Part shown: positions 59,056 through 60,152 of the stretch, one piece after another
Numbering within the stretch: position 1 is the stretch's first letter
Layout of the letters: the number at the start of each line of letters is the position of its first letter
Assembly (NCBI RefSeq): GCF_016026235.1
Contig: NZ_CP065613.1
Length of the DNA stretch: 64,000 nt
Direction: 5' to 3' (one strand)
Source of the DNA: Escherichia coli
GTDB taxonomy: Bacteria > Pseudomonadota > Gammaproteobacteria > Enterobacterales > Enterobacteriaceae
Program-made: the position numbers and the translations under genes
The notes under the pieces: model-generated
What the model was told of the DNA's origin: nothing
The model's input: the letters and a program-made list of their open reading frames with translations, nothing else
The model's database searches: none

Positions 59056-59158
59056 AATTAAGTGCTCCATATAATAAATACATCGTATTAAATTATCATG
59101 GCATAAAGTATTTCACCACCAGATATCCGACATACATAAACACGGTAATGACTCCAAC

Positions 59159-59662
59159 TTACTGATAGTGTTTTATGTTCAGATAATGCCCGATGACCTT
59201 GTCATGCAGCTCCACCGATTTTGAGAACGACAGTGACTTCCGTCCCAGCCTTGCCAGATGTTGTCTCAGATTCAGATTATGTCGCTCAATGCGCTGAGCG
59301 TAACGCTTGCTGATAACGTGCAGCTTTCCCTTCAGGCGTGATTCATACAGCGGCCAGCCATCCGTCATCCATACCACGACCTCAAAGGCCGACAGCAGGC
59401 TCAGAAGACGCTCCAGTGTGGCCAGAGTGCGTTCACCGAAGACGTGCGCCACAACCGTCCTCCGTATCCTGTCATACGCGTAAAACAGCCAGCGCTGACG
59501 TGATTTAGCACCGACGTAGCCCCACTGTTCGTCCATTTCAGCGCAGACAATCACATCACTGCCCGGTTGTATGCGCGAGGTTACCGACTGCGGCCTGAGT
59601 TTTTTAAGTGACGTAAAACCGTGTTGAGGCCAACGCCCATAATGCGTGCACTGGCGCGACAT
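59159..59662 (-). CDS. insB: IS1 InsB (expressed as an InsAB' frameshift fusion in IS1)
   Basis: 167-aa ORF ...[43 protein letters not shown]...; overlaps insA in the -1 frame. Confidence 0.9.
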
Positions 59663-59856
59663 CCGACGCCATTCATGGCCATATCAATGATTTTCTGGTG
59701 CGTACCGGGCTGAGAGGCGGTGTAAGTGAACTGTAGTTGCCATGTTTTACGGCAATGAGAGCAGAGATAGCGCTGATGTCCGGCAGTGCTTTTGCCGTTA
59801 CGCACCACGCCTTCAGTAGCGGAGCAGGAAGGACATCTGATGGAAATGGAAGCCAC
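59581..59856 (-). CDS. insA: IS1 InsA
   Basis: 91-aa [71 protein letters not shown]... Confidence 0.95.
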
Positions 59857-60152
59857 GCAAGCACCTTAAAATCACCATCATACACTAAATCAGTAAGTTG
59901 GCAGCATTACCCTTTTTCTGTAGGGTGGAATCTAACGCCTTTTTATAGCGAGGTTGTCCCGGCTCTTACCAATACACTTTTCTCACGCATTCAATAGCGA
60001 TTCGATATCGATGGATTTATATCTTTCCTCTATTAATCCACGGTAAAAACTGTATTGGCGATATTAATTCCTTTGCATTAACAATATGTCGTTTTTAGCA
60101 AACCACTTTATTAAGCAATCTACTAATAACGATCGGCATAGGGAATTATGCT

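Follow-up and report, generated by a model that had tools for sequence, protein, structure and literature searches.

A deletion that removed the xanthosine genes xapA and xapB, with an IS1 element placed exactly on its junction, was found in a 64,000-nucleotide stretch of Escherichia coli DNA (contig NZ_CP065613.1 of RefSeq assembly GCF_016026235.1; this whole stretch is called the window hereafter), and sequence comparisons support the view that the deletion is recent, took place in this lineage and is associated with IS1. The kind of event is fully known and its mechanism is a textbook one; what is new is the locus and the count of at least 12 separate IS1 excisions at it. In the literature searched on IS1 and xapAB, no paper describing the loss of xapAB through IS1 was found.

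The xapR-IS1-yfeN junction

On the minus strand, the window carries an intact xapR (58171-59055) encoding a LysR-type activator of 294 aa, which matches the NCBIfam equivalog NF007439 over residues 1-294 with 532 bits against a cut-off of 290. The 88 bp at 59056-59143 separate the xapR start from a complete IS1 of 768 bp (59144-59911, minus strand), and a further 241 bp (59912-60152) lead to an intact yfeN (60153-60917, plus strand), a Tsx-family outer-membrane channel gene whose product is full length against NF008574 (454 bits). At the DNA level, xapR is 99.6% and yfeN 99.3% identical to K-12. The public collection has the exact XapR protein in 4,953 blocks, and the identity of XapR to such a very widespread allele fits a deletion too recent for decay. 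Searches of the 64-kb window with the XapA and XapB proteins of K-12 (tblastn) gave no significant match (best E = 0.4), and a search of the window with the deleted DNA (blastn) gave no match. The arrangement given in the preliminary description, i.e., an intact xapR, a 768-bp IS1 starting 88 bp upstream of it, yfeN starting 241 bp beyond the IS1 and no coding sequence of xapA or xapB, is therefore what the window holds. To the left of xapR, downstream of lysV (58045-58105) and after the valU-valX-valY-lysV tRNA cluster, the window has one ~95-bp repeat unit fewer than K-12; an 'RtT sRNA' downstream of lysV is annotated by PGAP in some genomes and absent in others, and the Rfam matches in the window are four tRNAs only.

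Alignment to a genome with an intact xap region, which the preliminary description had proposed for mapping the endpoints, was made against the MG1655 reference locus of K-12 (L004, NC_000913.3 2519000-2527500; all locus positions below follow its numbering). The left flank runs to locus position 3566, leaving 88 bp before the xapR start codon, and the right flank restarts at 5887, so that exactly 2,320 bp are gone. The gap begins inside xapX and stops 7 bp beyond the start codon of xapA, on its upstream side; most of xapX, all of xapB and all of xapA are lost with it. Intact xapX is a 52-codon gene (3519-3677 in the K-12 locus) that matches TIGR03510 (DUF1427) and is annotated by PGAP between xapB and xapR, and in the window a 48-bp 3' remnant of this gene for a small DUF1427/XapX-domain protein (59096-59143, minus strand) is cut by the IS1. 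The element is hence positioned inside xapX and not in plain intergenic DNA, a detail that the preliminary description had missed. The left 9-bp flank, CATAAACAC (59135-59143), corresponds to 3558-3566 of the K-12 locus, and the right 9-bp flank, CTTTTTCTG (59912-59920), corresponds to 5887-5895 and belongs to a T-run complementary to the ribosome-binding region of xapA. By the same alignment, the stretch between xapA and yfeN keeps 241 of its 248 bp (59912-60152, minus strand), the xapA promoter and leader among them.

The closest complete genome, that of E. coli FDAARGOS_943, is 99.9% identical over 25 kb, with 3 mismatches in 8,092 bp of the left flank (99.96%) and 3 in 4,093 bp of the right flank (99.93%), and it carries an intact xapA-xapB-xapX-xapR without IS1 at either junction site. 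The IS1 of the window thus exactly joins flanks that are separated by 2,320 bp in both FDAARGOS_943 and K-12. Relatives natively without xapAB and without an IS would have spoken against a deletion, and in this lineage the nearest relative has the cassette. The same junctions are found in an independent GenBank assembly, GCA_031665325.1, on a 3.45-Mb contig that differs by 1 mismatch in 8,885 bp, a base inside the IS1, which argues against an assembly artefact.

Members of IS1 are about 768 bp long and have imperfect 23-bp terminal inverted repeats starting GGTAATG or GGTGATG, and the element at 59144-59911, delimited by its terminal repeats, reading frames and frameshift motif, is 768 bp long with such repeats at both ends. 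The insB-distal repeat, IRR, is GGTAATGACTCCAACTTACTGAT without mismatches (59144-59166), while the insA-proximal repeat, IRL (59889-59911, minus strand), has 3 mismatches and the element ends with the complement of GGTAATGCTGCCAACTTACTGAT; a terminal repeat match of this kind was obtained in 0 of 100 shuffles. insA (59581-59856, minus strand) is a 91-codon frame with the GTG start usual for insA, and it is followed in the -1 frame by insB', which is open and reaches 59159 on the minus strand; the A6C slippery motif AAAAAAC (59599-59605, element position 307) would join the two into the InsAB' transposase. The gene product of the IS1 in the identical sister locus (L018) matches PF03811, PF12759 and PF03400. 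Throughout its length the IS1 of the window is 99.9% identical to one common variant found in thousands of E. coli records, and by its reading frames it looks functional. With its transposase genes on the minus strand, the element has IRL facing yfeN and IRR facing xapR. There is a private base at 59299, which changes a Thr of the sister assembly to Ala in the C-terminal part of InsB (sister: ...KRYTQRIERHN...).

The 8-9-bp target-site duplication of simple IS1 insertions is missing, and the two 9-bp flanks can be read directly from the sequence to differ, as had been described. The missing duplication is expected once a copy has made or undergone a deletion and is no argument against IS1 identity. 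As an internal control, the other three IS copies in the window, an IS4 and two ISEc60, keep duplications of 10-12 bp, and the xap IS1 alone is without one. The IS4 (1,426 bp, 10118-11543) has 18-nt inverted repeats and a perfect 12-bp duplication, ATACTTTGGCTG, and sits just after the cscK start codon, cutting cscK off from its start; it is located in a region (7447-14441) where the sucrose genes cscB, cscK, cscA and cscR replace the K-12 prophage CPS-53, dsdC and the 5' part of dsdX. The other two are inverted copies of a 1.3-kb IS4-family element (43107-44418 and 51052-52365), which is ISEc60 in the annotation of FDAARGOS_943, one in fryC and the other between nupC and pdeA at exactly the position of IS186C in K-12. 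Each copy has a 10-11-bp duplication, both have a stop at transposase codon 239, and the segment between the two is inverted in FDAARGOS_943.

IS1 at the xap locus among complete E. coli genomes

We then surveyed 5,426 complete genomes, a collection made up of E. coli only. The xapR/yfeN flank sequence is present in 4,096 genomes and at least 80% of xapAB in 4,072, and the whole xapR-xapX-xapB-xapA-yfeN block is absent from about 1,330, approximately a quarter. In O157:H7 strain 493/89 (L027), for example, a flxA-like gene is found between lysV and yfeR in place of the xap cassette. Horizontal transfer of the xap regulon as a module, a view put forward earlier (PMC2395238), fits such cassette-free genomes. 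On plasmids, xapAB sequence was found at two places in the E. coli collection, which could mean IS-mediated capture of the module.

xapR and yfeN are brought close together in exactly 11 of the 5,426 genomes, and in 11 of 11 an IS1 without duplication is at the junction; every removal of xapAB alone that joins the two genes is, among these genomes, bounded by IS1. The left end, right start and orientation, in K-12 locus coordinates, are 3566, 5887 and + in the window, as compared with 3861, 5887, + in PK6; 3777, 5911, + in 2017.02.04CC; 3459, 5911, - in LF3-1; 3703, 5913, + in HNSQ2209; 3609, 6050, - in ET734; 3723, 6155, - in 2023CK-01509; 3570, 6465, + in PEC408; 3430, 6359, + in EM18-18-42; 3430, 6397, + in EC23HZZ201; 3430, 6396, + in CP131_Sichuan; and 3429, 6464, - in RM14721. 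Deletion sizes across the set range from 2,025 to 3,034 bp, and all 11 strains differ from the window in at least one endpoint. Like the window, they read xapR-IS1-yfeN without a duplication, with xapA lost entirely and xapB entirely or almost entirely, whereas the orientation of the IS1 is sometimes reversed and some of these deletions truncate xapR or yfeN, which that of the window does not. The left junction of the window is found in no other complete E. coli genome, the nearest being 4 bp off (PEC408 and 600055), and its right junction is found as a deletion in PK6 only. Although the right junction of PK6 is exactly that of the window, the two IS1 variants differ by 71 bases; across the 11 strains the IS1 copies are 35-71 bases different from that of the window, and the event in the window is thus independent of all others. 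As counted from these junctions and variants, xapAB is excised by IS1 at least 12 independent times in E. coli, the window included. The deletion strains are rich in IS1, with 25 to at least 40 matching places against a median of 12.

Simple IS1 insertions with a duplication are also present at the locus: 3422-3430 in NCTC11023, 3562-3570 in 600055, 3760-3768 in EP91B (genomes labelled ST361 or 361 share its match pattern, EP91B being the one mapped), 5950-5957 in LCP17S3_I1, 5967-5975 in SCPM-O-B-12142, 5984-5992 in 2017-19-1CC, 6155-6163 in HL15 and 6469-6477 in AF44. To these is added ST131 strain 5392, where xapAB is intact and an IS1 (2850-3617 of its locus, L036) with an 8-bp duplication, TTTTTTTG, occupies the T-run at 5888-5895, between the promoter and the start codon of xapA, i.e., the same T-run and the same orientation as at the right junction of the window; in this strain xapAB is probably silenced without a deletion. 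Around the same part of the locus, the xapA-yfeN intergenic region and yfeN (5880-6500) carry IS2, IS3-family, ISVsa5/IS10-like and IS1 insertions in various strains.

Five sites (3430, 3570, 5887, 5911 and 6155) are common to events that differ in IS1 variant or in orientation and must therefore be independent. The left flank of the window is 4 bp from the site 3562-3570, which was used independently by IS1 in 600055 and PEC408. Five such coincidences compare with ~0.18 expected under uniform sites over the locus (P about 1e-6); even if only 1,000 positions were usable, a much harsher null, P would be about 3e-4. The junctions are also richer in AT than the locus, with a GC content over 30 bp of 0.40 against an average of 0.46 (P = 0.002). 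IS1 has long been known to favour hot spots and AT-rich targets, both reportedly described in early studies, and our AT-rich junctions agree with this. By sequence, then, particular 9-bp sites at the xap locus are hit repeatedly by different IS1 variants. An enrichment of IS1 over the locus as a whole is not claimed, since a crude null (~12 chromosomal IS1 per 5-Mb genome in ~4,100 genomes) gives an expectation of ~10 genome-instances per kb, which is not clearly exceeded when clonal inheritance is allowed for.

Routes to the deletion

The preliminary description had proposed an adjacent deletion or a recombination of IS1 copies instead of a simple insertion, and the 2,320 bp missing relative to K-12 and FDAARGOS_943 bear this out. 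Between the two, we lean towards a recent IS1-mediated adjacent deletion as the origin of the arrangement in the window. In the first step, an ordinary IS1 insertion would have occurred at one edge of xapAB, most likely in the T-run CTTTTTCTG that precedes the xapA start codon by 7 bp; in the second, the transposase would have attacked a target 2.3 kb off, inside xapX on the same DNA molecule, and this intramolecular transposition would have been resolved such that the IS1 was kept and the 2,320 bp between the two sites were discarded. The IS1 would then be flanked by two unrelated 9-mers because the resolution kept the element and lost the DNA between the sites.

From other lineages we infer in what order the steps took place and at which end the IS1 had first inserted. 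A progenitor at the right site would read CTTTTTCTG/GGTAATGACTCC with xapA sequence to the left, and one at the left site GCAGCATTACC/CATAAACACAATGG. Among complete E. coli genomes, no IS1 at either junction with xapAB still present was found in the window's own lineage, and the two-step history is hence drawn from elsewhere. In the unrelated ST131 strain 5392, the progenitor state, an IS1 with its duplication at the right site and xapAB present, is seen. Because 5392 shows the first step there, the original insertion is placed upstream of xapA and the deletion would have run leftwards. Conceivably, as the left junction adjoins the reused site 3562-3570, the original insertion could have been there instead. 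A fixed IS end with variable far ends recurs in the set: junction 5887 is common to the window and PK6, with left ends at 3566 and 3861, respectively, and junction 3430 is common to the simple insertion of NCTC11023 and to three deletions with right ends at 6359, 6396 and 6397.

IS1-promoted adjacent deletions are classical, those of gal/lac being of this type. In common with these and with the IS deletions of the long-term evolution experiment (PMC11708052), the window has an IS at the junction and no duplication, and it further resembles known IS1 adjacent deletions in sharing a junction with a simple insertion elsewhere, in the variable far ends, in the IS-rich host and in the missing DNA being contiguous in relatives. 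The mechanism would be the same; the locus, xapX-xapB-xapA, is new, and the intermediate is known from another lineage.

Adjacent deletions and recombination between IS copies are both documented causes of IS copies without duplications, the latter a standard one (PMC11708052), and the flank sequences of the window fit the two alike. In the second case, same-orientation IS1 copies, each with its own duplication, would have been inserted in xapX and just upstream of xapA, and a RecA-dependent crossover between these direct repeats would have looped out xapAB with one IS1, an outcome identical at the sequence level to that of an adjacent deletion. A double insertion is plausible, since both junctions are at or next to sites used independently by IS1 (3562-3570 and 5887), and IS1 is abundant in the lineage, with at least 40 matching pieces in the nearest relative. 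We regard the crossover as possible yet the less probable route: it needs three events (two insertions and the crossover) against two for an adjacent deletion, and IS1 at both edges of xapAB was seen in none of the 5,426 genomes. A mosaic IS1 as evidence of recombination is uninformative in this case, the element being uniformly 99.9% identical to one common variant; that it has no mosaic structure is a weak point against the crossover, as two identical parents would leave no trace. The fewer events, the fixed IS end with variable far ends and the lack of any genome with IS1 at both edges are what favour the adjacent deletion.

In a single step, IS1 could have inserted into the broken ends of an unrelated deletion, an 'IS-Del' without a prior resident IS, which has been proposed for IS5 and IS481 (PMC11708052). 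This would account for a nearest relative without IS1 at either site and for a single-IS1 progenitor not being found in the lineage, and still it appears quite improbable: in the E. coli long-term evolution experiment, each of the 14 deletions associated with an IS was traced to an IS already in place and a subsequent adjacent deletion (PMC11708052), and both endpoints in the window coincide with sites chosen by the IS1 transposase elsewhere, as expected for junctions made by transposase and not for random breaks. Lastly, that there was no deletion in this lineage, xapAB never having been present or the junction being an artefact of collapsed IS1 repeats, is essentially excluded, for although xapAB is absent from 1,330 of 5,426 genomes and a multicopy repeat such as IS1 can mislead assemblers, genomes natively without xapAB (e.g., O157:H7) are also without xapR and yfeN, both of which the window has, the nearest relative (~99.95% identity) has the complete cassette, the second assembly spans the same junctions on its 3.45-Mb contig, and analogous IS1 junctions occur in eleven other complete genomes.

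Consequences for the xanthosine regulon

The xapABR genes of E. coli K-12 constitute its xanthosine regulon. XapA is the xanthosine phosphorylase and XapB a dedicated permease. Relative to K-12, the window has the same position of xapR, the xapA promoter region and the neighbour yfeN, whereas xapA, xapB and most of xapX are gone and the promoter now abuts the insA-proximal end of the IS1; of the members of the regulon, XapR is full length and XapA and XapB are absent. With the phosphorylase and the permease lost, xanthosine catabolism by this route is predicted to be lost as well. The loss of xanthosine phosphorolysis by XapA is a firm prediction from the sequence, that of the XapB permease is likewise predicted, and the strain would be expected not to grow on xanthosine through XapA. 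xapAB elsewhere in this genome is unlikely because the genes are single-copy at the native site in essentially all genomes. The preliminary description went too far in predicting a strain unable to take up xanthosine; NupG reportedly also transports it, and uptake is not necessarily abolished.

The description of xapR as a regulator without targets was likewise too strong: the structural genes are gone, as it held, and the XapR binding region is kept in the 241 of 248 bp. Two XapR sites have been reported in the xapAB promoter (PMC7205307), and by its position this promoter lies in the retained 241 bp, such that XapR appears to keep its binding region, though not its structural genes. The retained xapA promoter is predicted to read now into insA of the IS1 and onward to xapR, all on the minus strand. 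IS1 is classically polar, and read-through into xapR is therefore probably small. In the 88 bp kept upstream of xapR, a sigma-70-like consensus match (59099-59071) is a candidate for the promoter of xapR itself. In a simple sigma-70 scan, which yields consensus matches only, a promoter in the insA-proximal end of the IS1 was matched, presumably the known IS1 promoter, and the activator-dependent xapA promoter was not picked up.

A broader reading joins these observations: in E. coli, IS1 would strike xapAB preferentially, the gene pair being bordered by two AT-rich zones with reused target sites, one at the xapR-xapX-xapB junction and one at the xapA leader and promoter, and in the window transcription into the IS1 would be driven by the XapR and the xapA promoter that survive. 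We consider this combination rather unlikely. If it were true, this module would be excised again and again as IS1 expands, perhaps with the aid of selection against xanthosine catabolism in some hosts, and the expression of the IS1, or its inhibition by transcription from outside, would respond to xanthosine.

Established knowledge of IS1 and of the xap regulon is unchanged by our finding. The deletion in the window marks a very recent event in an IS-rich lineage, and the xap locus illustrates in nature how accessory metabolic modules are worn away by IS1 expansion while their regulators stay behind.
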